In this document: in pieces, positions 1,183 to 40,129 of the stretch
How the letters are laid out: each line of letters starts with the position of its first letter
Position numbering within the stretch: position 1 is the first letter of the stretch
Source: Wujia chipingensis
GTDB taxonomy: Bacteria; Bacillota; Clostridia; Lachnospirales; Lachnospiraceae
DNA length: 64,000 nt
Assembly (NCBI GenBank): GCA_963605535.1
Contig: CAVCXB010000003.1
Coordinates: forward strand, 19,797-83,796
Direction: 5' to 3'
Notes under the pieces: model-generated
The model's database searches: none
What the model saw: only the letters and a program-made list of their open reading frames with translations
Told to the model about the DNA's origin: nothing
Made by a program: the position numbers and the translations under genes

Positions 1183-1470
1183 TCAATCCTCCAAATCTAA
1201 GTCTTCCAACAGCTTATTTTTTATTTTGAACGTAATCATATCAACAAGTTTCTTCAAAGCGGATTCCAACCTCTCAACATTATCCAAATCGAATTCATCA
1301 TAGATGATGTAATCAGAGAACGAACCGTCGCCATATTGGCTGAATTGCATCCATAGTTCATTTTCACCCTTCGAATACTGAATGTTGATTTCATAATGAA
1401 GGCCAGATATTTGATACGTATAACCACCCTTAAGAGTATCTATAAGCTTCTTTTTGTCCATTTGCAACAC
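1183..1470 (-). CDS. hypothetical protein
   Basis: GGGAGG SD, operon packing. Confidence 0.7.
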   Translation of the reverse strand: MLQMDKKKLIDTLKGGYTYQISGLHYEINIQYSKGENELWMQFSQYGDGSFSDYIIYDEFDLDNVERLESALKKLVDMITFKIKNKLLEDLDLED

Positions 1471-1476
1471 CTCCCA

Positions 1477-3833: not shown

Positions 3834-4279
3834 ATGAGGCCAAGCTCCTCCTGACTATACGGACGCCCAAGTTCCATTCCTTCATACATTGAATCTTTCT
3901 TGAATGATGGGAAGTTCGTCTCACGATACACGAGATCCGGCTTTTTATTCCCACCTTTGTTGACGGCGGTAAGAATTGAGATGTACTCCTTATTCTCGCC
4001 ATCAGGGCGCTTCGTGACAGTCACGATGTCATTCATGAACGATTTCGTGACATTGGTGAGCCACTCATGCTCCTTATCGTTCAAAATTGGTTCGTCATAC
4101 AGTACGTAGTCATCCTCTGTCGGATCATCGCCTTCGATGAGCCCGATGTAATTCGGAGATCTCTTTATGCTGACAAGACCATATTCATGTTCAATCTCAG
4201 CAAAACATCTCTTCGGCCAGCACTTTCTTCTGATTCTTTTTCCGTCATAGAGTGCTTCAACTGCTTCCTTCAAATTCAT
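3830..4279 (-). CDS. phage protein with DUF2829-like N-terminus
   Basis: MNLKEAVEALYDGKRIRRKCW; start 4279 overlaps folD stop, AGGAGG SD; C-terminal MYEGMELGRPYSQEELGL. Confidence 0.7.
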   Translation of the reverse strand: MNLKEAVEALYDGKRIRRKCWPKRCFAEIEHEYGLVSIKRSPNYIGLIEGDDPTEDDYVLYDEPILNDKEHEWLTNVTKSFMNDIVTVTKRPDGENKEYISILTAVNKGGNKKPDLVYRETNFPSFKKDSMYEGMELGRPYSQEELGLI

Positions 4280-5334
4280 TTTCTTTCCTCCTTCAGCCAC
4301 TCGGCAAGCCTTGCCGGTGCGCTTATGCATGAATCCGTAACTTCATTCAGTGTTGGTGAATATTCCGGAGCGATGGGTTTCGGCTCGGCAATATCCGATC
4401 CTTTCGCAAATACGTACTGGACACTGTGCTTCTGATATATCCAATTCACGAAATCCTGGTCGCTCATTTGATTTATCCACTTCTTGTTTGTCATCCTATC
4501 ATGTGATTTCACACTGTTATCAAGCATATATAGATTGACGACGTTCTTCAGCAGCCTCAGCCTCGTGAGCAATCCCACGCCTCCGGGAACCGGACTCTGA
4601 TAAGCAACGGGAAGGCCTTTCTCACAGTCTCCGATAAGTTTGCCATTGCCATCGAAATTGATTCCCACATCGAACATGACCGTACTGTCTTTCGCTCTGT
4701 CGGTGAAGTCACTCTTCTTTATCAATCCAGGAACGCCGGCTGCGCATATGATCAAGTCTGCGTTCTGTATTGCACGTATGCGGTTCTCATCGCTTGTCTT
4801 CGAGTGCATCACAGTCACATTGCAGTTCCGTTCAATGAGTGCCTTTGCCATCGGCTTTCCGACGATGTCGCTTCGGCCGATGATGAGAGCGTTCTTGTTG
4901 CAGAAGCCATATTGATTCTCGTTCAGGTAGTCGATGATTCCATACGGCGTGGCTGGATTGACGAATGGTGTGTTTGTGAATCCATCGGCATCCTTCGCCG
5001 GAAGGATATGTGCGTTGATCATATATGGATTGATATGATGCGGAAGAGGCATCTGTACGATATACGCGTCAACATTGTCGTCTTTGTTGAGAAGATACAT
5101 ACTGTTCAGAAGATCCTCATCGCATGCGGTATCATCAAGCTCTTCCATCATCGTCTCTATTCCGACTTCACTGCAGTCTTTTATCTTATTGCGTACGTAT
5201 CGATTGCTCGCCTCATTATTGCCAACCTTGAGTATGGCCAATGTCGGATGACGTCCTTTCACAATGGCAGACCTATCGATTGCCGTCTTCACTTTCTCTT
5301 TCTCTGATTTGACATATTCTTTTATATCAACCAT
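4276..5334 (-). CDS. folD: bifunctional methylenetetrahydrofolate dehydrogenase/cyclohydrolase with C-terminal extension
   Basis: YVRNKIKDCSEVGI, VQMPLPHHI, KDADGF, PATPYGI, IGRSDIVGKPM, DVGIN, SPVPGGVG motifs. Confidence 0.95.
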   Translation of the reverse strand: MVDIKEYVKSEKEKVKTAIDRSAIVKGRHPTLAILKVGNNEASNRYVRNKIKDCSEVGIETMMEELDDTACDEDLLNSMYLLNKDDNVDAYIVQMPLPHHINPYMINAHILPAKDADGFTNTPFVNPATPYGIIDYLNENQYGFCNKNALIIGRSDIVGKPMAKALIERNCNVTVMHSKTSDENRIRAIQNADLIICAAGVPGLIKKSDFTDRAKDSTVMFDVGINFDGNGKLIGDCEKGLPVAYQSPVPGGVGLLTRLRLLKNVVNLYMLDNSVKSHDRMTNKKWINQMSDQDFVNWIYQKHSVQYVFAKGSDIAEPKPIAPEYSPTLNEVTDSCISAPARLAEWLKEERK

Positions 5335-5360
5335 AGGCTTTCCTCCATATGATGACTATG

Positions 5361-5390
5361 ATTATAAAGAATGAATTTCCAAATGTCAAC
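5361..5390 (-). promoter_or_regulatory. sigmaA-type promoter for folD operon
   Basis: TTGACA-17 nt-TATAAT on minus strand. Confidence 0.85.
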
Positions 5391-5413
5391 ATATAAAATA
5401 AAATTTCTCAGAT

Positions 5414-5442
5414 TTGATCTGGGGAGGGGATATAATTAAAAT
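5414..5442 (+). promoter_or_regulatory. promoter for candidate sRNA A
   Basis: TTGATC-17 nt-TAAAAT. Confidence 0.5.
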
Positions 5443-5448
5443 GTATAT

Positions 5449-5637
5449 TCTGAATTAGTCATGCTAATACCAAATGTTGATAGTGGTATCTGCATTTATC
5501 CTCCCAAAGCATGATATAGTATTTGGATCCCCGTCACATATAAACCTTGCATCATATCATGATTTTTGGCTAAGTAAGTGTAATTACCCCAAGTAAAACA
5601 AAAAAGTCGGCCAGCCCTATTTGGGGCTGGCCGTTTT
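5449..5637 (+). ncRNA. candidate small RNA A (anti-RBS seed)
   Basis: promoter upstream, terminator at end, no ORF, several stems (ATACCA/TGGTAT, CATGATAT/ATATCATG, TTAGTCA/TGGCTAA), seed CATTTATCCTCCC at 5493-5505. Confidence 0.45.
5601..5637. terminator. bidirectional intrinsic terminator
   Basis: A-tract, CGGCCAGCCC/GGGCTGGCCG stem, TTTT. Confidence 0.8.
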
Positions 5638-5672
5638 CGTGTGGTAATGTATTCTAGGTGGAATTTGATTGG

Positions 5673-6862: not shown

Positions 6863-6939
6863 CTTATTTTCCCCTTTCATTGGACATGATTGTGTTCCGT
6901 GGACCGAGTCCATCATGCAGCGCACCCCATGTGCCATAA

Positions 6940-6969
6940 AGTCTAGCACTGCGGAAACCAAATGTCAAC
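6940..6969 (-). promoter_or_regulatory. sigmaA-type promoter
   Basis: TTGACA-17 nt-TAGACT with TGn extension. Confidence 0.7.
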
Positions 6970-6970
6970 G

Positions 6971-7012
6971 AGAAAAAAGAAAAAGATGCTCTTTAGCTAG
7001 GAGAGCATCTTT
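6971..7012 (-). terminator. intrinsic terminator closing candidate sRNA B
   Basis: AAAGATGCTCT/AGAGCATCTTT stem followed by TTCTTTTTTCT on minus strand. Confidence 0.75.
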
Positions 7013-7264
7013 CTGCCGTTCGGTGGTAGCTAGTCACGTCGCGGCGCTATTTGGAAAGGAGTCCAAATGCGTGGTTCCGCAGATAGCGGCTGCGGTGTGT
7101 GTCATGTGTGGCGCAAAAATCCGGTGGGCTCGGCACAATCCATTCGCGGAAGAGGAAACCGCGTGGGCGGAGGAGATATTGCCGCCTTGCATTGCCGGCC
7201 GGCATCGGCCAAAAGTCGCCACATGCGGCTAGGGAACCGCAGGCACAGTCGCAATTCCTGTGCC
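6972..7264 (-). ncRNA. candidate structured small RNA B (~290 nt, several C/U-rich anti-SD loops)
   Basis: own promoter and terminator; at least seven stem-loops plus long-range TGTGGCG/CGCCACA pair; predicted start coincides with first stem. Confidence 0.6.
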
Positions 7265-7270
7265 GTGTAT

Positions 7271-7299
7271 ATTATCCCACGCCGCGCCCCAAAAGTAAA
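7271..7299 (-). promoter_or_regulatory. promoter for candidate sRNA B
   Basis: TTTACT-17 nt-GATAAT; same TTTACTTTTGG -35 context as the helicase promoter. Confidence 0.6.
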
Positions 7300-7380
7300 T
7301 AGGGACTTTTGTTGATTTTCCCCTTTCAAATCATCCGCCGCGAATGTATAATCATGTATATCACAGAAGGGGGAATCGAA

Positions 7381-7773
7381 ATGGGCTTGGATGTTCGGAT
7401 TATGCACGTCGCTCCGGAGCTCAGCGAGGATGCGAACAGCGTCATCTTCGAGGGCAGCGGCCGCATGACGTACGCATTCCTTAGGGAATGGGTTGGGGAC
7501 GAAAGATATGGCGAAGACATCATCTTGACGAAGGAGACGGCGGAAGAGCTGATCGATCTGGCGACAGGGCAGATGGCTGAGGTGTACATGGAGAGCAGCG
7601 AGAGCAAGGCGGCGTACGACCCAATTTCCGAGGCATGCGGTCTCGACAATCCGTACGGAATCGCCGAGTTCGTTCGTGTGATGATGATGGCCGAATCGGC
7701 AATCGCATACTACGATCGGCACAGGATTCCAGAGTCCGAGCGCGGACACTTCACGGTGGAGGCGGACTGGTGA
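7381..7773 (+). CDS. hypothetical phage protein (MGLD-start type)
   Basis: ATG 7381 after AAGGGGG SD and TG-TATAAT promoter. Confidence 0.75.
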   Translation: MGLDVRIMHVAPELSEDANSVIFEGSGRMTYAFLREWVGDERYGEDIILTKETAEELIDLATGQMAEVYMESSESKAAYDPISEACGLDNPYGIAEFVRVMMMAESAIAYYDRHRIPESERGHFTVEADW

Positions 7774-8087: not shown

Positions 8088-8130
8088 CCGTCATACAACA
8101 CATGACACACGACACAGGGAGGATTTATTC

Positions 8131-8748: not shown

Positions 8749-8752
8749 GCAC

Positions 8753-8792
8753 AAAAAAAAAGACCCGCTGCATCAGTGGGTCTTTTTTTTTT
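8753..8792. terminator. bidirectional intrinsic terminator
   Basis: A-tract, GACCCGCTG/CAGTGGGTC stem, T-tract, between convergent genes. Confidence 0.9.
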
Positions 8793-10511: not shown

Positions 10512-10540
10512 ATTATACGGCATCGGATACCAAAAGTAAA
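10512..10540 (-). promoter_or_regulatory. promoter for helicase
   Basis: TTTACT-17 nt-TATAAT. Confidence 0.7.
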
Positions 10541-11692: not shown

Positions 11693-14600
11693 TCACTTGC
11701 CGGATGGCTTGGCTGGCTTTGGCTGCTTGAGTGTCGACAAGACAGGCTTGCCGCATGGCTTGACGTACTTGTCTGTCTTGGCTGGTTTTGCGGTCTTTGC
11801 GGGCTTTGCGGTCTTCACGGAGGATCCGGAAGACTTCCTGGCTGCCTTCCTGGCCTTCTCCGCCTTCAGCTTCTCCTTTGCCGCGGCCTTCCTGCCGATC
11901 TTCGTTCCGGGCCTGTAGCATCTCTTCACGGGGTCCCAGTCCGGATCGTCCTTGACCCTGGTGTGCCTGATGCGGCCGTCGAGGACGTCCTCCTCGGTGA
12001 GGCGTATCTTGCCCTTCCCCGTGCTGAACTTCGCCACGTCCCTCGGCTCCTCCGAATAGATGCGCTCGCCCTCCTCGTACTTCCTGTCCGCGTCGGACTC
12101 CATCGCGGTCTTGTACATGCCGACCTTCGAGGAGAACGCCGCGATGCGGTCTGCGAGCGACCTGATGGATTCGGCGGTATGCTGCGGAAGCGAGGCGAAC
12201 GCGCCGCTGCGCTCGATGCCCATGTAGATCCTGCGGAACTCGCCGGAGAACTCGCTGAGCAGCTCGAGCGTGTCCATGTCGTAATGCTTCGATATGTCGA
12301 TCGGGGCGTCGATGTCCGTCAGGGCGGATGCGGCCCCGTCCACGGCGGACGGGGACACGGTCATGTCCGCTTCATCGTCCAGCGGCTTCCCGATGGGCTC
12401 CGAATACAGCTTGGCAAGGCTGGCGGAATCGAGCTTCGAATAGTCCCTGACGGCATCCCTCGGATCGTATGCGGCGTCGAGTATCGGATCCCACGGCAGC
12501 TGGCCGTTGAGCGCCGGAACCGAATCGTTCACCTGCTGCATGGCATGCATGGAGGATATGGCGGAGAACGCCACGGCGATCCTGTGCGAGTCCTCGGCCA
12601 TGAGCCCCTGGGGCGGGATCTGTATCTCGAGGATGTCCCTGTCCGTGCCCAGGGCGCGCTTTGCGTACTCGTTGACGAACATGCCCATGGCGATGCGGTA
12701 CTTCGACGCGAAGGAGTCGAGCTCGTTCTCGCCGCAGAGATTCAGTACGCACTGCAGGGCGAGGTTGTCGAACTCGATCATCTTCCTGTTCGTCTCGTCA
12801 TAGCGCCTCATGCGGATGTCCGCGAGGCGGCCGTCGAGGCTCATGCATAAGAGGCGGTAGTACAGCGCGATGACGTTCTTCTTCGGGAGCATGTCGAGCG
12901 CATCGACGATGGCCGACGTGTCGGACTCCGTGAGGTGGTAGAGCTTTATGACCTCGCCGTCGGAGAGCATCGAGAGGTCCTTGCCGAGGAGCTTGTCGTC
13001 CATCGAGAGGAGCGCGAGGTCCCCGATGAGCTTCCTCCTGTCTGCGTATGGAATCTTGTCCGTCTCCCCGCCCACGAACGTGATGGGCCTCCTCAGCTCT
13101 GCCGGGACGAAGAGCTCGTTGAGCGACTCGATGCGCTCGTTGTACGTGATGACGGAATGGACGGACGGCGGCATGGAATTCTTCTTCTTGTCGTCGTACG
13201 CCATGTCGTACTCCCTGGATGTGATGCGGTGCGCATACGCCAGGTTCGACGCCGCCAGGTACGTGGCAGCCTGTCTGTGGCGCAGGATCTGCTCCTTCGA
13301 GAGGACGGCCCGCCTCTTCCTTCCGTCTACGGCGAACGTGCCGGGCGTGTTGAACTCGCGGTTCCAGTTGACGATGTCCCTCTCGTCGAGCTCCTCGTAT
13401 CCGGACCACGTGTCGTCATGGCCGAAGAGGGCCTCCATCACGGCGACGATCTCCTTCCTGCGGTAGTTTCCGTACGTGCGGCGGTTGATGTCCGCCCTGT
13501 GGTGCAGATTGTCATCGCCCACGGTGAAGCAGTCGTCGAGCGGAATGCCGCCCGATCGGTACCGGCCGTCCCTCTCGGACAGGTTGCGGATGCTGTAGAG
13601 GCGCTTCCTCGATCGGAACCACTGCATGAGCAGGGGGAACTCGTTGTACGCGAGGCGCCTCCGGTCGAGGGAGAGGAGCATCGACATGAGCGCCTTCATG
13701 GCGTCCTCGGAGATGTTGTCGAGGTAGCAGTACACGTCGACGGGCCTGATCCTGATGGCCTCGTCGATGGTCTCTGCCGGCCTGTTGAAGATGAGATGCT
13801 CCGGGTTGGCGCATATGCCATGGTAGTTCGAGTACACGGTTGATGTGTACGTGCGCCGGAAATGCCTGTGGTACGAGTCGATGGACGAGATGGCCTCGTC
13901 GAGCGAGGCGAGGGACCCGGGAAGGGCGCCGGAGGCGACGGCATCCCCGAACCCGGGCGTCTGCCCGGTCTCCGGATCGGACGTGGGGATTCCCGCTGGC
14001 GTCTCCTGGTCGTCATCCAGCACGTATCCGAAATCGACGCAGTCTCCGTCCTCGTCGAACTCGACGTCGTCCTGATATGTATCATGTTCACTCGTGCCGT
14101 ATACATCATGTTCACTTTGATGAACGCTTCGGTGAACATCGTCGGCGGATGATCTACAGAGGGGGGATGATTCGACAGATGATGCGGTGGAGGATGGGCT
14201 GAATGATTCGACAGCGGGTGTGGAAGCGGGTGATGGATGGATGGGCGTGCCTATCGGAGGATTGTGCGCGACGGCATAGGATTCGCCCGGGTCGATCTCT
14301 ACGTGCGAGATTCTCTCTCGGAGGGCGTCTACGGTGAACGAGGATGGCACGGATGGGCCGGATGATGACTTGGATGATGACTTGGATGGCGTCTCCTCCG
14401 TTTCCGTGCCGTCTTGCGCACCGGCACAAGCCGGTGCCAATGCGGGCGAGGACGATGGGGATGATGGGGATGGGTGTGCGGAGATGGATGTGTGTGGGGC
14501 TGATGCGAATGGGGTGGGTATCTCAAGCTCGGCGGAATCCGAGCTCAGGCTTTCCGCGATGGCGGACTGGCATTCTACGAAGAGGGGTGTCAGATCGGAT

Positions 14601-14767
14601 ACGAGACGTACGTACTCGGAACGCTGCTTCTCCTCGGGAAGGCTCCGCATGTTCTGGAGGGCGACATCATAGCTCTCGAGAACGGAAGAGGGGACTTCTT
14701 TGTGCAGATACTGTACGTATCTATTCAACGTATGAAGGAACTGCGAGAATTTCAATGTGTATGACAT
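11693..14767 (-). CDS. large hypothetical protein (1024 aa) with Ser/Pro-rich linker and Lys/Ala/Pro-rich C-terminal tail
   Basis: long ORF with AAGGA SD and TG-TATAAT upstream; tail KTAKPAKTAKPAK. Confidence 0.85.
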   Translation of the reverse strand: MSYTLKFSQFLHTLNRYVQYLHKEVPSSVLESYDVALQNMRSLPEEKQRSEYVRLVSDLTPLFVECQSAIAESLSSDSAELEIPTPFASAPHTSISAHPSPSSPSSSPALAPACAGAQDGTETEETPSKSSSKSSSGPSVPSSFTVDALRERISHVEIDPGESYAVAHNPPIGTPIHPSPASTPAVESFSPSSTASSVESSPLCRSSADDVHRSVHQSEHDVYGTSEHDTYQDDVEFDEDGDCVDFGYVLDDDQETPAGIPTSDPETGQTPGFGDAVASGALPGSLASLDEAISSIDSYHRHFRRTYTSTVYSNYHGICANPEHLIFNRPAETIDEAIRIRPVDVYCYLDNISEDAMKALMSMLLSLDRRRLAYNEFPLLMQWFRSRKRLYSIRNLSERDGRYRSGGIPLDDCFTVGDDNLHHRADINRRTYGNYRRKEIVAVMEALFGHDDTWSGYEELDERDIVNWNREFNTPGTFAVDGRKRRAVLSKEQILRHRQAATYLAASNLAYAHRITSREYDMAYDDKKKNSMPPSVHSVITYNERIESLNELFVPAELRRPITFVGGETDKIPYADRRKLIGDLALLSMDDKLLGKDLSMLSDGEVIKLYHLTESDTSAIVDALDMLPKKNVIALYYRLLCMSLDGRLADIRMRRYDETNRKMIEFDNLALQCVLNLCGENELDSFASKYRIAMGMFVNEYAKRALGTDRDILEIQIPPQGLMAEDSHRIAVAFSAISSMHAMQQVNDSVPALNGQLPWDPILDAAYDPRDAVRDYSKLDSASLAKLYSEPIGKPLDDEADMTVSPSAVDGAASALTDIDAPIDISKHYDMDTLELLSEFSGEFRRIYMGIERSGAFASLPQHTAESIRSLADRIAAFSSKVGMYKTAMESDADRKYEEGERIYSEEPRDVAKFSTGKGKIRLTEEDVLDGRIRHTRVKDDPDWDPVKRCYRPGTKIGRKAAAKEKLKAEKARKAARKSSGSSVKTAKPAKTAKPAKTDKYVKPCGKPVLSTLKQPKPAKPSGK

Positions 14768-14960
14768 GTGTTTTTAATCCTTAATGCGATTATATCATAC
14801 ACGAAAAATGACAAAAATTCCACCATATTGAAATTTAATATAAATTTTATGTGAAAATATTTTTTGACATTTGTCCAATAAAATAAAAATTTTTGCAAAA
14901 ATTTCACGTGAAATTGTCGAAAAAGTGAAAGTTACACAAAATAATCTTTTGTAAACATAA

Positions 14961-15022
14961 AAATGCGCACAAATGAGCATGCAAAAATGAGCACAAATGA
15001 GCAAATGACATTGCAAAAATGA
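14961..15022 (+). repeat. degenerate CA(C/A)AAATGA repeats
   Basis: GCACAAATGA, GCAAAAATGA, GCACAAATGA, GCAAATGA, GCAAAAATGA. Confidence 0.7.
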
Positions 15023-16417
15023 TTTTCCCAAAAAGACCCGCCATCGTCAAAAAATAACTTTTGAGCAGCGAGTCTATTTTTGAGCGATTGTGAAATACTT
15101 TGCATTTGTCGAATATTTTTAATACGTACTGACGTCAGTCTCAACTAACCAAATATAGCACTTTTATAGCAAAATGACTTTAAGATATATATAATACACA
15201 TGAGTAGTGTGTATTATATATATCTTATTCAATTTTACCTCCAACCCCACTCAAAAAATAAAGTTGTCAGTTTTTATTCAAAATTTGAAAAATTAATTTT
15301 TGCATTGTACTTAAATGTAAAAAAGTAATATTCTTACTTTTTTACATTTAAGTAACACATCATTTCGAAAAAGTCAATAAAATTCATAAAAAACCCCGAA
15401 AAAGCACCATTCGGAGAGACTGTCTGCCGGTATAAATAATACAAGTATTACTACGTAATACTGTATATTTATCGCCTTATTTGACATCTGTCAATTATCG
15501 AAGTTTTGCGAAGAAGCGCCGAAACACTCTTAGAATTATTATATAATTCTACTAGGGTCGATTTTGGATATCAAAGCTATATTTTGATATAAACATGTAT
15601 ATATTTCATATATACATGTTTACCTTTGGGAAATTTTGACGTTTTGGATCGCTCTTATACTTCGTATAGATTTTTTAAAAAAAGATTTTTTATTATTTTT
15701 TTCAAGTTACAGCAGGAAAAAAAAAAAAAAAAGAAAATAAACGTGCAATAAATGTGTAGTGATTCGGCGAAAACCAACAACTTTCCGAAAAATCGAACCC
15801 TAATACCCTTTAGGGTATATAGCGATCCAAAACCGCAAAAAACCTCAAAGGTAAACATGTATATGTTTAATACGCTGGAAAGCTTTGATATCCGGATTTC
15901 GGCCAAAAGCGCACTCCTACCGTAGGTAGACTGCAAGAAATCGGCCTATCGACACAGGGTGGGGGTATACATCCAGCCTCACGTAGTATATAATATATAC
16001 AAGTATATTTAATATACAGCGTGAGAGCCGACCTTCCCGTACAGAAAACGCCTTCCCACACGTAGGGCAACGCACCGCAGAACCCCCAAAACCCTCCAGG
16101 ACGCACAGAAATGGCCTTTCTAGCCCTTCCGTCGTCTTCCGTGGGAAAATATTCAGGTGAAGAATTTCCGAGCCTCCTAGGGCCATTTCTGTGAGTGTGA
16201 GGGCAAACCGCCCCAGAATCCATCCACACCCCACTGTCGAGTGTTCCGAGCCTTTCGGACGCGGATTCCATCCGTCAGTCCGGCGAGTCCTCCCTCGTAC
16301 GCTGGCGCGCCAAAGGAAAGTTAATATCCCTTCAGAAAGAAAAAAGAGTTTCCCTTCTGATGAAACGAAAAGACGGGATGTGACATCTGTAACCGAGCGA
16401 AAGCCATGCAAATCCGT

Positions 16418-16518
16418 GAGCACAAATGAACAGAAATGAACACAAATGAACACAAATGAACATGAAATAATCAAAAATGCAATGTGCGCAAATGCGCAAA
16501 ATGAGCAAAAATGAACAT
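16418..16518 (+). repeat. 10-bp-period tandem repeats CACAAATGAA (iteron-like)
   Basis: CACAAATGAA CAGAAATGAA CACAAATGAA CACAAATGAA CATGAAATAA at 16421-16470 plus degenerate copies. Confidence 0.8.
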
Positions 16519-16576
16519 GTTCGGAGCTTAATTTTGATTTACAAATCGAACAAAACTGTAACACGAGATTTTCAAT

Positions 16577-16606
16577 AAAAAAGCCCTTTCAAAGGAGGGC
16601 TTTTTT
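16577..16606. terminator. bidirectional intrinsic terminator
   Basis: AAAAAAGCCCTTTC-AAA-GGAGGGCTTTTTT right after stop of 16611 gene. Confidence 0.85.
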
Positions 16607-16610
16607 CGTG

Positions 16611-17630
16611 TTACATGAAGTGTTTCATGGCCTCATTTCGGTCAACATAATACGTACTGTTGAGGTCTTTGTCAGGGTCGAATACGTACTCGTCAAGGTG
16701 CAATTTGCCGTCTGCGTACTCGACTTTCGACGCGTGCCGGATACGTATTCCTGGGGCGGAGTACCAATAGTCTTTATAGATTCTATGTGTTGCCGCCGGG
16801 GTGTTGCTGTCTGATCCGTTCTGCTCATTGACCTCTCTGTACGTATTGCCGGATGCTGTTGTGTACGTAGACGATCCAGCGACGATGTCAAACAGGCTTT
16901 CGATTCTTGTATCGCAGTGTTCAGGGTCGGTGCAGTCGATGATCTTTCTCGGCTGGTCTGGAACCTCTTCGGCATCAGCCAATCCGGCGAGACGTGAATT
17001 GAGTCCGAGATTGAATGACTGCACACCGATGTCAGGTGCTGCACGCACGACATCGACGGGCGTCGATCCTCTCAGCACGAACACCTTCCCATTCCGGTCA
17101 CGGAACTCCGCTGCGTACTGGTACGTAGCCGGCGTGTCGCCGGCATGGTCTCTCTCGCCATGCATCTCTTTCGTGTTGCTTGAGCAGCTGTCGATGTACG
17201 TAATCTCGTAATCCTCGTCCAGAACTCTGCTGAGAAGCTGGGGGTAATCGATGAGCGCTCCCCTGTTGTATAGGCTGTATACGTATTCGAGGAACTCGTG
17301 TACGCACAGGATCGTGATCTTCTTCTGCGGCATGGGTGATACGACCATCACGTTGCATCTCGTACCCTCCGGATTCCTGCAGTCGGCCTGGCATAGATAC
17401 CAGTAGATCATCGACCCTGCTGGAACGAGGATGTCATCCTCTCCGCACGGCGCATCCATTGAGCTGCGCTTGATGTAGATATCACGGCAGACCCATAGCG
17501 ACTGCGGGAACTTTCCAAGCATGTCTACGTACTCATGCATACGATTCCAATCCTCGCCGCCATCATAGAACCATCTGTCGATTTCTTTGTACATGTCCTG
17601 CCGAAGCAGGGTGTTTTCCTGTTTTGCCAT
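16611..17630 (-). CDS. hypothetical protein
   Basis: start MAKQENT at 17630 after AAAGGAG. Confidence 0.8.
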   Translation of the reverse strand: MAKQENTLLRQDMYKEIDRWFYDGGEDWNRMHEYVDMLGKFPQSLWVCRDIYIKRSSMDAPCGEDDILVPAGSMIYWYLCQADCRNPEGTRCNVMVVSPMPQKKITILCVHEFLEYVYSLYNRGALIDYPQLLSRVLDEDYEITYIDSCSSNTKEMHGERDHAGDTPATYQYAAEFRDRNGKVFVLRGSTPVDVVRAAPDIGVQSFNLGLNSRLAGLADAEEVPDQPRKIIDCTDPEHCDTRIESLFDIVAGSSTYTTASGNTYREVNEQNGSDSNTPAATHRIYKDYWYSAPGIRIRHASKVEYADGKLHLDEYVFDPDKDLNSTYYVDRNEAMKHFM

Positions 17631-17680
17631 TCTGTCAATCTCCTTTTTCCATCCGCCATTATTATATACCAAATGTCAAC

Positions 17681-23451: not shown

Positions 23452-24279
23452 CTAATAGTTCATAATCAATAGTTCATCAACCATGTGCCTCCTTGTCCCT
23501 GTCGAACCGACTGAGTGTCTCACCTGAAGCGATTCGATTCTGTACTTGGCGTAGCGTGTACGTATGAACTCGGTGTTGGCGTTGGACATCATACACAGAA
23601 CGCCTTTCGCTGTGAGCGAATCGAACAGATTGGCAAGCCTCTCCTGCTCTTCCCTGCAGAATCCGAACTTCGTATAGTCATTGAACATCTTTCCGTCTTC
23701 GGAATCATACGGCGGATCGAAGTACACGAAGTCATTCTTTGAAGCATCAATCACTGCATACGTATAGTTCACATTGATGATTTGGATGTCATTCCCAGAG
23801 AGGTACTTATGGATGTTGTCGAGGTTTTTCTTCGTGTAGATGATGGCACTCATATCCTTTCCATACGGGACATTGAAGTATCCATCCTTATTCACACGGT
23901 ACAGACCATTGAATCCGGTCTTATTCAGATAGATGAATCGCGCCGCACGTATGAACGGCTCAGTCTCCAGGAAATCCGCCTTGCGATCGAGCGCACGGAT
24001 CTGCCTATACGTATCTGCACTGTTGAGGGACTGATAATTCCTCAGCATCGGGATGAGATACTTATACTGCGTGGCATCCTTTATGGTTCTGTACGTATTG
24101 ATGAGCTCAGGATTGAGATCGTTTATGACAGCCTTCGGGGGCTGAAGCCTGAATAACAGAGCTCCTGATCCGAGAAATGCCTCGTAGTACGTATTGAATG
24201 AGGCGGGAACATGCTTGATGAGTCGATCAACACATCTCGATTTGCCTCCGACCCATTTGATGAACGGTTTCATTTCCAT
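23452..24279 (-). CDS. dam: Dam/D12-class N6-adenine DNA methyltransferase
   Basis: KPFIKWVGGK, YYEAFLGSGA, NDLNPELIN, FNGLYRVN, FNVPYG, VYFDPPY. Confidence 0.93.
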   Translation of the reverse strand: MEMKPFIKWVGGKSRCVDRLIKHVPASFNTYYEAFLGSGALLFRLQPPKAVINDLNPELINTYRTIKDATQYKYLIPMLRNYQSLNSADTYRQIRALDRKADFLETEPFIRAARFIYLNKTGFNGLYRVNKDGYFNVPYGKDMSAIIYTKKNLDNIHKYLSGNDIQIINVNYTYAVIDASKNDFVYFDPPYDSEDGKMFNDYTKFGFCREEQERLANLFDSLTAKGVLCMMSNANTEFIRTRYAKYRIESLQVRHSVGSTGTRRHMVDELLIMNY

Positions 24280-25964: not shown

Positions 25965-26175
25965 ATCCTTTTTCCTTTCTTCTCTGCGTTGGCGGCGAAG
26001 CCCCAACCTCAGAGAGTTTTTTCAACAAACATCTTTTCTTTCATTACATAACAACCATCCTTTCTCAACGTCGATTTGGGTACAATAATAGGCTCGCTTA
26101 TGAGCGAACCTATTATTGCGTTTTTTGTTTTTCCTTGGCAACGGAGAACTGAGTTCTTCTATGATTACCATATTC

Positions 26176-26204
26176 ATTATATCAATTGGATAATCAAATG
26201 TCAA
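26176..26204 (-). promoter_or_regulatory. sigmaA-type promoter
   Basis: TTGACA-17 nt-TG.TATAAT. Confidence 0.85.
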
Positions 26205-26206
26205 CA

Positions 26207-26240
26207 AGAAAAAAGACCCGCGGTGGATGAATCCGCGGGC
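26207..26240 (-). terminator. intrinsic terminator
   Basis: CCCGCGG/CCGCGGG stem then TCTTTTTTCTT on minus strand. Confidence 0.8.
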
Positions 26241-26300
26241 GTAATGGAAAAAGAAGCTAATGGAATACCATCTATTTTGAAAGAGAGAAATAAATGATAC
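26207..26300 (-). ncRNA. candidate small RNA C (~95 nt, anti-RBS seed)
   Basis: promoter at 26307-26335, terminator at 26207-26240, seed CATTTATTTCTCTCTTTC. Confidence 0.5.
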
Positions 26301-26306
26301 TTTATT

Positions 26307-26335
26307 ATATTAGCATCTTTCTGTACGTATGTCAA
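26307..26335 (-). promoter_or_regulatory. promoter for candidate sRNA C, with TACGTACAG in its spacer
   Basis: TTGACA-TACGTACAGAAAGATGC-TAATAT. Confidence 0.6.
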
Positions 26336-27051: not shown

Positions 27052-28179
27052 CTACTTACTGCTCTTATGACGGTTACAGTCTTTACACAGCATCTGAAGA
27101 TTGTCATACGTAGTATGACCGCCTTCGCACCATGGCTTGATATGATCCCCCTCCATCTCGGAATACTCATAGTGCTTGCCGCATATTGGACAATAGCCCC
27201 CCTGTTCCAAATACTTCTTCTGCTTCATCGCATCTGTGAACTGACGGATGTTCAGGACGGATTCTTTCGTGCCTCTGCTCAATACGTACTCGATGATTCC
27301 GACATTACGTACATCATCGTCGAGAATCAATTTTGCAATCTCAGATTCCAATTCGTCTGGGTTGTATTCCTCATCCTTATACGTATTGTATAGGATTCCC
27401 CACGCCTGTGCATCCGTGATTCCTTTTCTGTACGTAGGGAAGAGGCTCTGTGCCCATCGCATCACATCTTTATAATAGTTCCACAACTCATCAACGGACG
27501 TATCATTCTGATGCTTAGACATATAATCTTCAATCTTCTTCAGTCCTTCATCATTCGCCTTCCACTGATACACCTGCTCGAGAATCTCCTGACGGATTGG
27601 ATTGCCTCGTACGTATTTCTCGAATCCACCTTTTTTTGCTGGGCACCCGTTTTTGCTGAAGCGATCTCTGCACATAGTAACCCATTCACCTGAATACACT
27701 GCATTGAGGATCTCCTGGTCGGTGAGTTTCTCCCCGGTGAGATTGATTGTACGGAACCAATTCAGCCTATCCTCCGCTGCCCCTCTGCATTCGAAGACCA
27801 TCAGCTCATATTTGCGAATTGCATCTGCTGTCTCCGGATATGCCGTAAGCATGTTGCTGAATGTGCATGGCGATCCGTTATATGTGATTGCATACTGATT
27901 GTCTACGTACTGGCAGATGCTGATGGTTCTCTGCTGTCCGTCGATGAGATCCCATACCTCGGCATCATTCGACTTTCCCCAATACATGTTGCCGATTGGG
28001 TATCCTTTGATTACGGACTGGACAACTGCCTCTCTCTTCTTGTTGTCGTAGACAAACTCCCTCTGGTACGCTGGACGAACGTTCAGCTTGCCATTGTATG
28101 CGACAACTCCGCCGAAGATGGTGTCTCTGAAGCCCCTGCTCAACTGATCGACTGTTACGTACTTCTTTTGAATCTTCAT
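27052..28179 (-). CDS. DUF262 (GmrS-like) + HNH endonuclease
   Basis: YQRE, LIDGQQR, FRTIN..G.KL; CPIC...GDHIKPW..GG.T..NLQMLC..CN; start 28179. Confidence 0.9.
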   Translation of the reverse strand: MKIQKKYVTVDQLSRGFRDTIFGGVVAYNGKLNVRPAYQREFVYDNKKREAVVQSVIKGYPIGNMYWGKSNDAEVWDLIDGQQRTISICQYVDNQYAITYNGSPCTFSNMLTAYPETADAIRKYELMVFECRGAAEDRLNWFRTINLTGEKLTDQEILNAVYSGEWVTMCRDRFSKNGCPAKKGGFEKYVRGNPIRQEILEQVYQWKANDEGLKKIEDYMSKHQNDTSVDELWNYYKDVMRWAQSLFPTYRKGITDAQAWGILYNTYKDEEYNPDELESEIAKLILDDDVRNVGIIEYVLSRGTKESVLNIRQFTDAMKQKKYLEQGGYCPICGKHYEYSEMEGDHIKPWCEGGHTTYDNLQMLCKDCNRHKSSK

Positions 28180-28180
28180 T

Positions 28181-29113
28181 TTACTTTTCCTCCTTGATGA
28201 TTCTACGAATAAAGATGCGGGCGTATGTTGCCTTGCCATTGATGTTTGTCTTGAAATCATCATCAGCTGAAGACTTTGTACCACAATAGATCTTTCTGAT
28301 GATGTCGTCTTTATCCCAACCTTGACTTCCTAATATCTCAAACTCCTCAGGGTTATATTTGGTTAAGAACGTAACCGGCACACCCATGACTCCGAAATAG
28401 TCTTCAGGAATGTCAGACACCTTATCGACATTGATGGCATCATAATTGTCATACTTCTTATACAGTTCAGGACTGTCCTTGACCGTACGTGTGAAGATGA
28501 ACTTCTCACGCTGTGTTTCAACCGGCAAAGTGGTGAACCAATTGATGTTTCCAAACTTCTTTGATGTGCCATCAGGCAACTTGAATTCCTTCACAGGATT
28601 ATATCCAATACGTATTACATTACGCTTAATCAATGGGAAAATCTCTTTGTAGGTGACAGCATTATAATTCCCGATGATCAAGAAATCTTTCTTGTGCTCC
28701 AATAACGTTGTTACGTAGGATCTGAACAGACTGAATGGTGGATTGGTTACGACGATGTCTGCTCTATCCAACAGTCTCAGGCATTCTTCGATTGCGTAAT
28801 CTCCGTTTCCCTTTAACGAGTACATCCTTCCCATCCCACAGTCGATGTCATTTTCACCGCGATAGTTCAGTACGTACGATGAACCATTTGGTTCATAGTG
28901 TGTGCTGACGAGTTCCTTCAGTCCAAAGGTGTTGAAGTAGATGTGGAAGTACTTCCAGAAGTTCGACCATTTCGGATCATCGCAGTTGCAGAAGATCGTC
29001 TTCCCTTTGAAGTACGTACGATAATTCCAGCACTCTTCTTGGATATCTTCCAGTCTCGTATAGAACTCATCATTCTTCTCTACCTTGGCTTTGTTCATGT
29101 TCTTGTTGCTCAT
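28181..29113 (-). CDS. EcoRI-family adenine-specific DNA methyltransferase
   Basis: KNDEFYT, FCNCDDP, VVTNPPFSLFR, YDNYDAINV, MGVPVTFL. Confidence 0.9.
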   Translation of the reverse strand: MSNKNMNKAKVEKNDEFYTRLEDIQEECWNYRTYFKGKTIFCNCDDPKWSNFWKYFHIYFNTFGLKELVSTHYEPNGSSYVLNYRGENDIDCGMGRMYSLKGNGDYAIEECLRLLDRADIVVTNPPFSLFRSYVTTLLEHKKDFLIIGNYNAVTYKEIFPLIKRNVIRIGYNPVKEFKLPDGTSKKFGNINWFTTLPVETQREKFIFTRTVKDSPELYKKYDNYDAINVDKVSDIPEDYFGVMGVPVTFLTKYNPEEFEILGSQGWDKDDIIRKIYCGTKSSADDDFKTNINGKATYARIFIRRIIKEEK

Positions 29114-32031: not shown

Positions 32032-32060
32032 ATTCTACTACCTCACAATCTAAATGTCAA
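32032..32060 (-). promoter_or_regulatory. sigmaA-type promoter
   Basis: TTGACA-17 nt-TAGAAT. Confidence 0.8.
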
Positions 32061-34613: not shown

Positions 34614-36341
34614 TCACAGCCTACACTGCATTGCTAGCTGTTTGATAATCTCCTTTCTGAACTCGGTGACATAATCCTTACAGAGTTTCACCTTTGCTCT
34701 CGGACAATACTTAATATACGGCTCATTCTCCGTATCGCATATGATAATGTAATTATCGTAATTGAATAACTCGAAAAGCTTCGCATAATTGCTTCGATAC
34801 TTTGCCGAATGATTATTTCGGTGTGCGTGAAGCAACATGTCTCCATCCATGAGGATAAGAACCTTATTGACTGCATTCTGCTTGAAGGTGCTCCTGATCA
34901 TCGGATCGATCTTTTCATCGACGTTACTCCCCTCATTTGGGTTATATTCTATGTTACGCTTATCGTAATACGTAGCATGCTCGCCCATGGAGATGTAATC
35001 GAAGCTGAACTTCTTGCATCTCCGTTCGCATTCACAGAGTGACATCAACAATGCTCGCACGTCACTCTTGTTGTCTTCCATTGATCCGGAAGAATCTATA
35101 ACAAGGGTGAGATGAAGCTTGGCGTACTTCATGATATCCCCTTCAACAGATTCATGGATGAACGCCCTGTAATCCTGTCGGGTTGCGAGCATTCTAGGCA
35201 TAATCTTGCCTGAATATCCAAGCCTTGCACCGGTTTCCCCCTGTAATCTAGACTCGAATTCATTGAAAATCATGATCATCTGATTCGTGTATTGCGGATC
35301 GCGATAATCATAATAATTAACAAGATCCTTTCCGAGGTTATTATTTTTGACATATCCGGAATCAATCTTCTTGGCGTCACGCTTTAGCTTTTTGACAATA
35401 TCCTTGATTGCCTGTTCACGCTCTTCGCGTGCCTTCTGCTCTTCAGTTCCACCATCCCCATCGCCGCCTTCTTCGGATGAAGGGGCTGTTGATGACTGCT
35501 GAGCTGCACTCTCTGACTGATTCGGAGAGCTCTTGGAGTCATTCGACGATCCACTGTCATTGGATTGAGAACCCTGATCCTCAGCTTCCTGACTATCCTG
35601 ATCAGTCTGATTCTGTTTTTGAGCGCTCTCGTTCTGATTCTGCTTTTGATTGCCTCCTTTCTTGCTTTGCTTTTGAGAGCTACCCTTCTGATTCTGCTGA
35701 CAATCAAAGTCTTTGCAGCACTTTTTGAATAACTCAAACACTTCTGTAATGTATCTCTGTACGGTGGTTGTTTGTGTATATCGAGCGTCGACATATTGAT
35801 ATACATCGATTATTCTAGAGACCTCATTAACAAGGTCTTTTGCTCCCCAACGATAACGGACCACCTGAAAGAAATAATCCATTGCCGAAGTCGGTTCTTT
35901 CGGATTCTTTGGATCCCATCCGGTGATCCTCATAATATTCTTCTTGAAGTTCACCTTGATGAAGGTGTTCTTCTCAAGCGTCTCAATGCGCTCATCCTCA
36001 AAGATATTGATGATATCTGTACCATTAGGGATCTTATTCGCATCCGCGATCACCTTGGCATCATGAAACATCGTCTTCGGTGTACGCAATGCATGAGACA
36101 CCTCATGAAAGAGAACGCTGCGAAGCGTCTCTTCCAGGATCGCCTGATCGGCACTGCTGACGTTCGCCATCGCCTGATGTACATTGTTCACAGCGATGAC
36201 AATCTCCCAATTCATTGGATCGAAATACGATGTAGAATTGACACCATCAGTGTCGAGGGTGACGGGGATATATTCCCCGAGATAATAACCAACATCGAGC
36301 TTATTGAACTCGCGTCGGATTGTTTCATTACTGAAGTTCAT
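34614..36341 (-). CDS. CobT-like vWA-domain protein with N-terminal HExxH metallopeptidase-like domain
   Basis: LFHEVSH, NIFEDERIE, Q/S-rich linker, MIDAS motif VIDSSGSM, ILMDG. Confidence 0.85.
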   Translation of the reverse strand: MNFSNETIRREFNKLDVGYYLGEYIPVTLDTDGVNSTSYFDPMNWEIVIAVNNVHQAMANVSSADQAILEETLRSVLFHEVSHALRTPKTMFHDAKVIADANKIPNGTDIINIFEDERIETLEKNTFIKVNFKKNIMRITGWDPKNPKEPTSAMDYFFQVVRYRWGAKDLVNEVSRIIDVYQYVDARYTQTTTVQRYITEVFELFKKCCKDFDCQQNQKGSSQKQSKKGGNQKQNQNESAQKQNQTDQDSQEAEDQGSQSNDSGSSNDSKSSPNQSESAAQQSSTAPSSEEGGDGDGGTEEQKAREEREQAIKDIVKKLKRDAKKIDSGYVKNNNLGKDLVNYYDYRDPQYTNQMIMIFNEFESRLQGETGARLGYSGKIMPRMLATRQDYRAFIHESVEGDIMKYAKLHLTLVIDSSGSMEDNKSDVRALLMSLCECERRCKKFSFDYISMGEHATYYDKRNIEYNPNEGSNVDEKIDPMIRSTFKQNAVNKVLILMDGDMLLHAHRNNHSAKYRSNYAKLFELFNYDNYIIICDTENEPYIKYCPRAKVKLCKDYVTEFRKEIIKQLAMQCRL

Positions 36342-36355
36342 ATTTTATATCCTCC

Positions 36356-36943
36356 TTAGATGCAATATTCCTTACCTTCATAAGATAAGGAATATATTTT
36401 CAACAAAGACAATGGAAACGTGTAGTGCGCTCCATCTTTACTACTCTTCTTGATCGGCGAAGGAAGATGCGAGGCCGGTAACTCGTTGCGATTCGGATCA
36501 ATATACTTCGTCTTGATCTCGAGGCCACGCTCAATTGCGTAGTCAAGATCCACGGCCAAGAATTTCTCGCCCGTCTTCGTATTCAACAGGGCTATTTCCC
36601 CTGATTTTTTGAATACATTAAGGGGCTTCTTTTCCGGAAGCCCCAACATCATAGTCAGCTCAGAGATCGATTTGGCTGAATTGAGAATTTCTCGCATCTC
36701 CTTCACACCTTCCTCAATCACTTTATCAACAAGATCCTGATGTTCATCAAGAAACTTGTTGATGAAAAACTCCTTGGAATCATTATCGGTTCCAAGGAGT
36801 ACATCGGCTTCGACAACCTTCAAATAGCCTTTGATGGACGTGTCTTCCATCGAAAGGCTATTATACCACACGATATGAACCGGTTTGCCCGGAACATATC
36901 GTGTCTCCAGCTCGTCTAAACAGGCTATTGTAAAGATACCCAT
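36356..36943 (-). CDS. hypothetical protein
   Basis: AAAGGAGG SD, between AAA and vWA genes. Confidence 0.8.
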   Translation of the reverse strand: MGIFTIACLDELETRYVPGKPVHIVWYNSLSMEDTSIKGYLKVVEADVLLGTDNDSKEFFINKFLDEHQDLVDKVIEEGVKEMREILNSAKSISELTMMLGLPEKKPLNVFKKSGEIALLNTKTGEKFLAVDLDYAIERGLEIKTKYIDPNRNELPASHLPSPIKKSSKDGAHYTFPLSLLKIYSLSYEGKEYCI

Positions 36944-36964
36944 AATTGCATCCTCCTTTCTTTG

Positions 36965-38275
36965 CTACTCGAAATCATAACTGACGTCGTAGCAGTCGTC
37001 GGTTATGTCAAACCTACGGATATCGTAGGCTCGATCAACTAATGCCTCAGGCAATGGATTGATATGCCCGTTGACTTTGAGGTTCATCGTTCCAATGATC
37101 TCGAAGCCCGGATGGATATCGATCTTCTGGTTGTTATACCAGATGCAGTCCTTGTTGTCTAACAAGTTCTGCAAGAAGCATAACGACACTTGCGGCAATA
37201 GTCTAATCTCCTCAAACACGATCTTGTACCCGAGCTTCAGCGCTTGGGTCAACAGGGTGTCATGGAACTCCGCCTCCCCTGATTGGAAGTCGAACTCCCT
37301 CATCAGTACATCAGGCGTGACGTCCGACGAACACGGATACACATACTCCTTATTCGTCAATTCGCTGACGGCTTGATACGTCTTCCCTCCTGATGGGTCT
37401 CCATAATACAGCTTCAATCGTTTATTGATTGGGGTTGCATTCAACCCGAATGTCGATAACAGATCAAAGAGTGCATTCTTGAATTCATCACCATCCAATT
37501 TAGGAATGATGATGTCCTTCATCGGATGGTCCGTCAATTCGAATACTCCGATGAGGTATCGTCTTGTTCCGAACCATCCGTATTGTTGTCCGATACGGAG
37601 AGACGCATCAAAGATACGTCTAGACAACACATAGTCGGCGTCTTTGAAGACGTCGCAATACCTCATTCTGGCTTTCACCAGATCATTCCTCTGAGTTTGA
37701 GGAATCTTCAATTTAAAATACGGCTCTATCGGACCGGCTGTGAAGGATCCCCATACCGACTTCTTATAGTCAGACAATGTCATGCCGTGGGGCATGGCAT
37801 TATTGGTCTTAGAAGACGTTGTTGCTGTTGCTGCCGTCTGAGCCTGAACAGTAGCTGCCTTTCTGGTCTTCACAGCCTTGACGTAATCCCTCATGTAATC
37901 AAGGATTGCGTCTTCATCAAGCGGAGTTCCACTCCGCTTTGCATCCTCAATCTTCAAGAATGCTTGAATGATGATCGTTCCTTCATCCCAATGAAGGCAA
38001 CGATTGTTGGGATCTTTTCCGATGAAAGATTTATATTGGAGGATTTGCTTTCCTCCAATATCATCCTCATCGGCATCATCAAGCATACTCCAATTGGAGT
38101 ATACTTGAAGCGCACCGCAGTCGAATGCGGCTTTAAGGTCAGCGCATGCGCTGACCTCATCTGCGGTGAAGGTCTGCAGTAGACCTACCGACTGGCTAAA
38201 GGAATATCCTTTAGCCATTGAAATAATCGATAAATCTGAAGTTTTTGTTATTTTTAATTTTTGAATATAGGGCAT
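36965..38275 (-). CDS. MoxR/CbbQ/CobS-like AAA+ ATPase
   Basis: Walker A GDPSGGKT, Walker B IVFEE, IHPGFEIIGTMN, LPEALVDR; start 38275. Confidence 0.85.
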   Translation of the reverse strand: MPYIQKLKITKTSDLSIISMAKGYSFSQSVGLLQTFTADEVSACADLKAAFDCGALQVYSNWSMLDDADEDDIGGKQILQYKSFIGKDPNNRCLHWDEGTIIIQAFLKIEDAKRSGTPLDEDAILDYMRDYVKAVKTRKAATVQAQTAATATTSSKTNNAMPHGMTLSDYKKSVWGSFTAGPIEPYFKLKIPQTQRNDLVKARMRYCDVFKDADYVLSRRIFDASLRIGQQYGWFGTRRYLIGVFELTDHPMKDIIIPKLDGDEFKNALFDLLSTFGLNATPINKRLKLYYGDPSGGKTYQAVSELTNKEYVYPCSSDVTPDVLMREFDFQSGEAEFHDTLLTQALKLGYKIVFEEIRLLPQVSLCFLQNLLDNKDCIWYNNQKIDIHPGFEIIGTMNLKVNGHINPLPEALVDRAYDIRRFDITDDCYDVSYDFE

Positions 38276-38447
38276 TTTTATTTTCCTTTCATTGTTACAT
38301 CCCTTCCCATCCCATCCCATCCCTTCCCGAATATTTAGCCTCCTTTCTGAAGTGTTCACACACTTCTAACACTTAACAAGTGCTTGCTGAGTGTTAGAAA
38401 TCCATGAACATGAAAGGGTGAGGAGCAATCCTCACCCTCAACATTCA

Positions 38448-39696: not shown

Positions 39697-39769
39697 TTTA
39701 TTTTCCTTTCTATTATTCGTCTCATCCCGTCTCTTCTCGTATATTTAGCCTCCTTTTTAACGGGCTCTT

Positions 39770-39948: not shown

Positions 39949-40129
39949 CCCAATCAGCGCCCGCCATATATGACTAAAAAATTTCCACGGTATGTTTACT
40001 TTTGGTTACCATTTGGTAAAATTTTCCGCACAGAAAATTCCATCTGTGTTTACTTTTGGAATATCAAATTTATTTTTCCCGCACGCATTCCTATTATGTA
40101 TAATATATGCAGAAGGAAGATCACGAACT

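Follow-up and report, generated by a model that had tools for sequence, protein, structure and literature searches.

We describe a candidate small RNA (sRNA) of an uncultured phage, predicted as a noncoding RNA of about 293 nt on the minus strand of positions 6972-7264 of the window, by which we mean the whole 64-kb stretch of DNA analysed here (bases 19797-83796 of the 88,143-base contig C3 of a metagenome bin). A stand-alone, structured RNA on the minus strand is supported by a promoter motif, an intrinsic terminator, the fold itself and overlapping ORFs that do not behave as genes, and we consider it likely that a real transcript is made from this region. As to its role, we tentatively favour, at close to even confidence, a new phage-borne sRNA with CU-rich loops acting like LhrC, RsaE and RNAIII, which would block Shine-Dalgarno (SD) sequences by base pairing. 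The architecture that the original prediction had noticed in this DNA was confirmed, while its interpretation as a whole found support in part.

Phage contig and gene neighbourhood

Contig C3 is phage-like from end to end, with genes for portal, baseplate J, DUF2213, SNF2 helicase, DNA methylases, FolD, primase and reverse transcriptase proteins, as well as one tRNA-Pro, and it gave no blastn match to the remainder of the bin at E 0.01. Its distant relatives are spread over bins labelled Bacteroides, Bacillales, Clostridia, Erysipelotrichaceae and Roseburia, and so point to no one host. The SD sequences and promoters of C3 appear Bacillota-like, and the host is probably Gram-positive.

The RNA region occupies the centre of a 518-nt gene-free gap (6863-7380), bordered by a minus-strand gene (6862-6005) on one side and a plus-strand gene (7381-7773) on the other, each of these being called on 6-7 contigs. 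The former, called as a gene on 7 contigs, encodes an acidic protein of 285 aa with no match in Pfam or PHROG. The latter encodes 130 aa and is preceded by a divergent plus-strand promoter (7325-7352); its only matches in the protein atlas were unnamed viral clusters. The phage-borne FolD (methylene-THF dehydrogenase/cyclohydrolase, 4276-5334) is 31% identical to the bin's own copy.

Several other features of the contig deserve mention in their own right. An EcoRI-type adenine methylase lies beside a GmrSD-N/HNH protein at 27052-29113, a Dam-like methylase at 23452-24279, and an AAA ATPase within 34614-38275, together with what we take to be its vWA-like partner. To the left of the window, C3 carries a diversity-generating retroelement (L099:14585-16664; reverse transcriptase at 15627-16664), whose 110-nt repeat pair (14585-14694 and 14941-15050) shows 15 differences, all facing A in the second copy. 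A gene-free, AT-rich region of 1.8 kb at 14768-16610, with perfect inverted repeats of 20-21 nt, a 52-nt inverted pair and 10-nt tandem repeats, is a possible replication origin or genome end, judging by its repeats. Where the early and the structural block diverge, a gap of 433 nt (39697-40129) holds a chain of about seven strong hairpins (z -6.7 on the plus and -7.9 on the minus strand) and is a candidate for a second structured RNA or control region. Structured gaps were also seen at 25965-26331 and 38276-38447 (z about -5 to -6), and the stretches 38276-38357 and 39696-39767 are related repeats with strong SD-like runs and no clear ORF. The gap before folD (5335-5672) contains a bidirectional terminator (5608-5633), what may be an extended -10 element on the minus strand near 5555 and a C-rich run ahead of the folD promoter; here 5393-5548 is unstructured on the minus strand (z -0.05) and 5411-5645 modestly structured on the plus strand (z -2.5). 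In a distant relative, a 700-nt gap (L023:289-984) consists of degenerate tandem repeats rich in G and A, and gene calling gave no long ORF there.

A transcription unit predicted to stand alone

The predicted promoter (7271-7299, minus strand) has 9/12 consensus matches plus a TG: the -35 box TTTACT (7299-7294) is followed by a 17-nt spacer, TG at 7279-7278 and the -10 box GATAAT (7276-7271). The start had been placed 7 nt after GATAAT, and this holds, as the G at 7264 is the seventh base after the box and at the same time the first base of the 5'-terminal hairpin. The -35 box sits inside an 11-mer, TTTACTTTTGG (7299-7289), which occurs in C3 in five exact copies against 0.068 expected, none of the five inside a credible gene. 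One of the other four, at 10540(-) (10530-10540), precedes the helicase gene, with TATAAT at 17 nt; the remaining three, at 39995(+) (39995-40005), 40049(+) (40049-40059) and 40810(+) (40810-40820), precede the plus-strand block that includes portal, baseplate and tail genes. A copy with one mismatch at 50725(+) (50725-50735) again has TATAAT at 17 nt. A -10 box matching at 5/6 or 6/6 positions follows the copies at 10540, 39995 and 50725 at 16-17 nt, while those at 40810 and 15619 (the latter with one mismatch) have no clear -10 box. The copy belonging to the RNA is without the RTG-like prefix (atg/gtg) of the others, which counts against it.

Because TTTACTTTTGG recurs ahead of the helicase and the structural operons, we regard the promoter of the RNA as credible. 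By this promoter the RNA belongs to the helicase/virion class, from which we infer that its expression is probably middle or late. A second class, TTGACATTTGG and its variants, was found solely before minus-strand genes taken as early (as TTGACATTTG/AG at 5379-5389, 6958-6968, 17669-17679, 26194-26204 and 32050-32060), and the division into two classes suggests that a phage factor serves the first. One member of the second class, with a TG-extended TAGACT, forms a separate promoter (6940-6968, minus strand) for the downstream gene, and upstream, at about 8750-8790, a strong hairpin flanked by T-runs closes the helicase gene. For these two reasons the RNA appears to be a unit of its own.

The U-tailed terminator of the original prediction was recovered at 6972-7014 (minus strand, z -4.0), as a 13-bp stem (7014-6980; mean pair probability 0.95) with the loop CCUAGCUAA and the tail UUUUUCUUUUUUC. 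A terminator scanner did not list this hairpin, because its 9-nt loop exceeds the 8-nt limit of the scanner. The U tail is weaker evidence than it appears, because it also serves the next promoter as its upstream T-tract, one that recurs at two other promoters of this phage.

A promoter, a structured leader and a terminator that precede a co-oriented gene could also make up a cis-acting leader (an attenuator, a riboswitch or a T-box-like element) controlling read-through into the 6862-6005 gene. In keeping with this, two folds of the 3' third (RNA 166-230) differ by no more than 1.3 kcal/mol, and GGAACCACG at RNA 186-194 is what we take to resemble a T-box bulge. However, this stretch has CGGA in place of UGGN, that is, CGG where UGG is needed; no competing antiterminator was found, and the terminator, which forms with either 3' fold, beats any fold with its 3' arm open by 9.8 kcal/mol. 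The downstream gene has a promoter of its own, and no Rfam riboswitch or T-box scored up to E 10. We therefore regard a leader as highly improbable.

Predicted fold of the RNA

Folding was run on both strands, as originally proposed. The minus strand reached a minimum free energy (MFE) of -106.8 kcal/mol (z -3.29), which none of 200 shuffled sequences equalled, against a weaker z of -2.40 (5/200 shuffles) on the plus strand; with the terminator removed, the values were -2.2 (2/200) and -1.2 (27/200), respectively. All the stems and loops named in the original prediction were found on the minus strand at the places given. The 5'-terminal hairpin H1 (7242-7264), with the stem GGCACAG/CUGUGCC beginning at +1, has a pair probability of 1.00 and a loop without anti-SD character. 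It is followed by H2 (7224-7241; 0.80), a GCGG/CCGC stem whose loop UUCCCUAG holds UCCC and is partly closed by U·G and U-A pairs. The predicted long-range pair TGTGGCG/CGCCACA was upheld as the helix UGUGGCG 7223-7217 / CGCCACA 7113-7107 (0.92), which closes a central arm (7107-7223). This arm, which taken alone is not stabler than its shuffles (z -1.2), ends in a three-way junction presenting two more hairpins with GCGG/CCGC stems: H3 (7166-7186; 0.91), with the loop CAAUAUCUCCU (anti-AGGAG plus spacer), and H4 (7145-7163; 0.94), with the loop UUUCCUCUU (anti-GAGGAAA), which is fully open at an opening cost of 0.02 kcal/mol. Nearer the 3' end, the hairpin H5 (7077-7095; CCGCAG/CUGCGG) has a pair probability of only 0.35 and competes with a longer helix across 7030-7100, and H6 (7049-7068; 0.85) exposes the loop CUCCUU inside CUCCUUUC.

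The GCGG/CCGC stem shared by H2, H3 and H4 was matched in 6/5000 shuffles, a feature chosen post hoc, and 14 GCGG-loop-CCGC modules exist in the whole contig. The 5' strands of H2 and H4 are near repeats. Such sharing fits either duplication or recognition by a protein.

Extension of the 7224-7241 stem by U·G pairs had been offered as a sign that the minus strand is the transcript. This is true locally, but G·U pairs over the whole element give no preference for the minus strand, with 2 in 84 pairs there against 13 in 95 on the plus strand; the balance leans to the plus strand, though not significantly, as a difference as large was seen in 31/300 shuffles.

With 2 G·U in 84 pairs, where shuffles have 9%, nearly every pair of the minus-strand stems is Watson-Crick, and folded as DNA the strand reaches a z of -5.41; both results lend some weight to a DNA-level or neutral reading, in which no functional RNA exists and the region is a cluster of DNA palindromes (a single-strand or cruciform signal, or remnants of one) between divergent promoters, with pyrimidine loops that are incidental. 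The 82 Watson-Crick pairs would be usable on both strands, other palindromic intergenic blocks exist in this phage (39697-40129 and 25965-26331), and searches of the wider family (30 virus records, 6 bins) turned up no homologue of the element. Against this, a class-specific promoter faces inward at exactly 7 nt from the first stem, with no gene to serve, as the next gene has its own, and a terminator stands at the end of the element. Moreover, all the motif-bearing loops read as pyrimidine on one strand, the minus. On balance we think this reading unlikely.

The plus strand and its overlapping ORFs

The plus strand carries an 82-aa shadow ORF over the RNA (7067-7315) with a good SD, GAAAGGAG, 5 nt ahead of its ATG, and conservation of its product as a protein had been named in the original prediction as evidence that would tell against an RNA. 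No homologue was found among 5.8 billion clusters, and the ORF is absent from the protein collection as a called gene. Five overlapping ORFs, this one included, were tested for codon usage, and all scored below every one of 96 phage genes (96/96). ORF 6915-7232, the other of the two ORFs searched, had no match among 1.84 billion representatives. We conclude that 7067-7315 is most likely not a gene.

The alternative that the plus strand is the product, either as a CsrA/RsmA sponge or as the mRNA of this ORF (the 16S-like loop would then be no more than its SD read in reverse, and the minus-strand RNA, if made, a cis-antisense RNA), draws on the SD of the ORF, on four hairpins with GGA-type loops in a fold-free count, on the larger number of G·U pairs inside the plus-strand helices and on the 3' domain, where the two strands fold equally well (z -3.7 on the plus against -3.5 on the minus strand). 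However, no plus-strand promoter was found between 6107 and 7325, and only one of five loops in the plus-strand MFE structure carries a GGA-type motif. CsrA was detected in 0/5 bins (which may not include the host), the phage's own contig included, with the control positive in 3/14 genomes. The sponge, which had been put forward as the reading of the opposite strand, is thus unlikely in itself, and a plus-strand product of either kind seems very improbable to us.

Pyrimidine loops and predicted pairing with ribosome-binding sites

Five of the eight loops contain UCCU, UCCC, UUCC or CUCC, 4-mers that were picked after viewing the sequence; none of 500 shuffles reached five (the maximum of four was seen once). 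Among 600 same-length segments of the contig, five of eight was found in two, this RNA and the segment at 21329(+), which is antisense to a gene. With a shorter pairing span and other offsets, three to four motif loops were present in 24/1212 segments, two segments overlapping the RNA having three, and in a fold-free count this region, like two coding sites, had four motif hairpins in a span of 300 nt. The cluster of motif loops is therefore unusual, not unique. The five loops differ in sequence, with no single common motif and UCCC solely in H2, and the CU-rich loops are predicted to be open (opening cost 0.0-0.3 kcal/mol).

A match between the RNA and the 3' tail of 16S rRNA had been the central claim as to function. 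The 8-nt match is present, as CUCCUUUC against the 16S 3' tail found in the bin, but a match of at least 8 nt occurred in 186/5000 shuffles, and only the 6 nt CUCCUU lie exposed in one loop, freeing the other two bases at a cost of 5.4 kcal/mol. Read on the plus strand, the CUCCUUUC of H6 is also the SD of the ORF at 7067.

Pairing with starts was computed over 96 phage starts, obtained from 115 ORFs called on C3 after 19 had been dropped by hand (shadow ORFs, doubtful starts and 7067-7315). Compared with gene interiors, these starts are bound more strongly by 3.1 kcal/mol in the case of the H3 loop and by 3.8 kcal/mol for the loops of both H4 and H6. Out of 200 shuffled loops in each case, 7 were as good at starts for H3, 21 for H4, 4 for H6 and 13 for the terminator loop, as compared with 68 for H2, 121 for H1, 151 for H5 and none for the 16S tail; the loop of H1 pairs worse with starts than with gene interiors. 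Mimicry of the 16S tail was thus overstated: H3, H4 and H6 do prefer starts, but the real tail binds them better (-10.1 against -6.7 to -7.9 kcal/mol for the loops), and H2 does not stand out from its shuffles.

The best phage target candidate, a lead only, is the start region GGGAGGUGUUGC (1464-1475, minus strand) of a 92-aa gene (1183-1461), the product of which matches only unnamed viral clusters in the protein atlas. The loop of H3 would form 12 contiguous pairs with it, 3 of them G·U, at -19.2 kcal/mol, or -16.0 kcal/mol after opening of the RNA, the next best duplex reaching -10.7. We treat it as no more than a lead because five loops were tried and because, with the core fixed, the duplex was matched by 4/400 shuffled and 47/400 random 5' halves.

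A protein-binding RNA, in which H2, H3 and H4 would be repeated docking sites or decoys for a protein of phage or host that recognises pyrimidine-rich loops and the SD match would be incidental, would account for the three same-orientation 4-bp GCGG stems and the near repeats of H2 and H4, and would fit with the lack of a convincing mRNA target. Yet the three loops differ in length (8, 11 and 9 nt) and sequence, and H3, H4 and H6 beat their own shuffles at starts, so the order of bases matters; the neighbouring genes, for their part, include no recognisable RNA-binding protein. We hold this to be an unlikely alternative to the base-pairing sRNA.

A broader version of base pairing is a multi-armed SD decoy with a loop set of anti-UAGGGA, -AGGAG, -GAGGAAA, -AAGGAG and -UAGG, which would be switched on with the virion genes and, with no chaperone, broadly damp strong-SD host and early phage mRNAs. 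If it were true, ribosomes would be handed to late mRNAs, and the host would be taken over by an RNA copying the function of the 16S tail. Naked loops do favour 34 early over 22 late starts (H4, p 0.024; H6, p 0.004; terminator loop, p 0.0003), as does the 16S tail (p 0.0002). An early-to-late switch was nevertheless rejected, as the preference followed SD strength and was gone once accessibility was included (medians -8.05 and -7.8 kcal/mol; p 0.30). We rate the decoy as rather improbable.

Other kinds of target were considered and set aside. Long antisense targets came down to two exact 13-nt matches in the contig, at chance level (estimated <1 expected) and neither of them antisense to a start, and a match of the 3' U tail to the A-rich spacers of four genes over 10 nt was judged to be low-complexity. 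The unpaired linker at RNA 156-168 recurs in the same sense at 8098-8110, just before the SD of gene 8131; this 13-nt low-complexity repeat is probably due to chance.

Comparison with known RNAs

The RNA is a member of no Rfam family. Rfam 15 gave no hits in the window at the gathering threshold (T-box, riboswitches, SRP, RNase P, tmRNA, C4, CsrB, cuckoo, RsaE and LhrC included), and up to E 10 only the terminator hairpin scored (ctRNA_p42d, 18.9 bits against 50). No tRNA or tmRNA was reported at the RNA by ARAGORN. An HDV-like ribozyme, an SRP Alu domain, RNase P and phi29 pRNA were rejected, there being no Rfam hit and the required pairings being absent. In the three supplementary files searched, the catalogue of candidate structured RNAs from viruses by Fremin et al. 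2023 (PMC10690425) gave no motif match.

The closest parallels come from sRNAs of Gram-positive bacteria in which unpaired CU-rich or UCCC loop motifs, the terminator loop included, bind SD regions without Hfq (PMC4132741, PMC2790875). Like Listeria LhrC, the phage RNA has several redundant CU-rich loop motifs, one of them in the terminator loop, suited to SD regions, and LhrC does not need Hfq (PMC4132741). LhrC is chromosomal, 111-114 nt long, present in five copies and built on a repeated UCCC motif (PMC4132741), whereas the RNA described here is about 293 nt long, single copy and phage-borne, with five different loops and a three-way junction. With Staphylococcus RNAIII and the Rsa RNAs (RsaE/RoxS) it shares a multi-hairpin layout, a protective 5' hairpin, a terminator and unpaired C-rich boxes directed at SD sequences (PMC2790875). 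It differs from them in having no sequence or model match, UCCC in one loop only and no credible ORF inside. RNAIII, by comparison, encodes a peptide. A further C-rich sRNA of S. aureus, SprD, uses UCCC, as cited in PMC4132741.

Measured against C-rich-box sRNAs in general, the phage RNA has unpaired C/U-rich motifs in five of eight loops, predicted open, with the strict UCCC only in H2, and by sequence prediction it has its own promoter, a 5' hairpin and an intrinsic terminator. In 5/5 bins, which may not include the phage host, no Hfq scored over the cut-off. SprD is prophage-borne in S. aureus, and a phage origin of a C-rich sRNA is for that reason not new in itself.

Adjacent hairpins with anti-SD-like loops are also found in Cuckoo/alpha-r14 of the Alphaproteobacteria, defined by CCUCCUCCC in each loop of 2-4 like hairpins (PMC4615179). 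Here CCUCCUCCC is in no loop, and it is the stems, not the loops, that are repeated, which places the phage RNA outside that definition. The c4 antisense RNA of phages P1 and P7 resembles it in having loops complementary to a ribosome-binding region, but c4 has specific complementary boxes in ant mRNA (PMC12197685), while the longest exact contig matches of the present RNA are 13 nt, at chance level, with no Rfam C4 hit. Its reverse complement shows GGA motifs in hairpins, like the CsrB/RsmZ sponges (PMC7652899), but this is the wrong strand by promoter and terminator, GGA is mostly paired in the plus-strand fold and the bins tested had no CsrA.

Search for relatives

The RNA is single copy, and the searches for relatives described here should be read with the proviso that the model was weak, being one sequence entered twice, and would miss distant homologues. 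GenBank phages gave no blastn match at E 1; in plasmids, three records had a 30-nt match at E 0.9, with no annotation at the site, and among 60 relatives of the bin the best match, of 29 nt, covered no more than the promoter and lay ahead of an unrelated gene. Pattern scans of IMG/VR returned 0 loci, 1 promoter-motif locus and 4 loci without model support, and none of 74 promoter-pattern loci in IMG/VR was followed by a similar RNA; a pattern scan of JGI metagenomes also returned 0, as did 151 genomes of one candidate host family.

The helicase, used as another route to relatives, pointed to 55 loci in viruses and 9 in genomes, of which the closest had about 50% identity. Scans of the close clade found none. 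DNA and model searches of the 36 whole records of the wider family (the 30 virus records and 6 bins mentioned above) gave a best E of 0.002, inside a protein gene. Hairpin clusters in 57 family loci reached three motif loops at four places and never four, the one inspected being coding, and nothing similar was seen among the GC-rich gaps listed for the same 57 loci. Close strains are known by their proteins alone, with helicases 98, 80, 73 and 72% identical and the divergent gene 90 and 40% identical.

Proposed mode of action and significance

In the reading that we prefer, an sRNA of about 290 nt would be transcribed independently from a promoter of the helicase/virion class, probably in middle or late infection, its ends being protected, by analogy with Bacillota sRNAs, by the 5' hairpin at +1 and the terminator. 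The open CU-rich loops, mainly those of H3, H4 and H6, would seed duplexes on the SD regions of target mRNAs, and extension of these duplexes into the spacer may repress translation without Hfq, as in LhrC, RsaE and RNAIII. As the loops differ, each may be tuned to its own SD variant.

The mechanism is known for few phage sRNAs. One using several anti-SD loops was found neither in the review passages of PMC12197685 nor, for a phage, in the titles and abstract openings listed by full-text searches that took in few subscription journals. What we present is one well-formed candidate. If the RNA is expressed with the structural genes and its loops block initiation, it would provide a compact, chaperone-free model of how a phage tunes translation.
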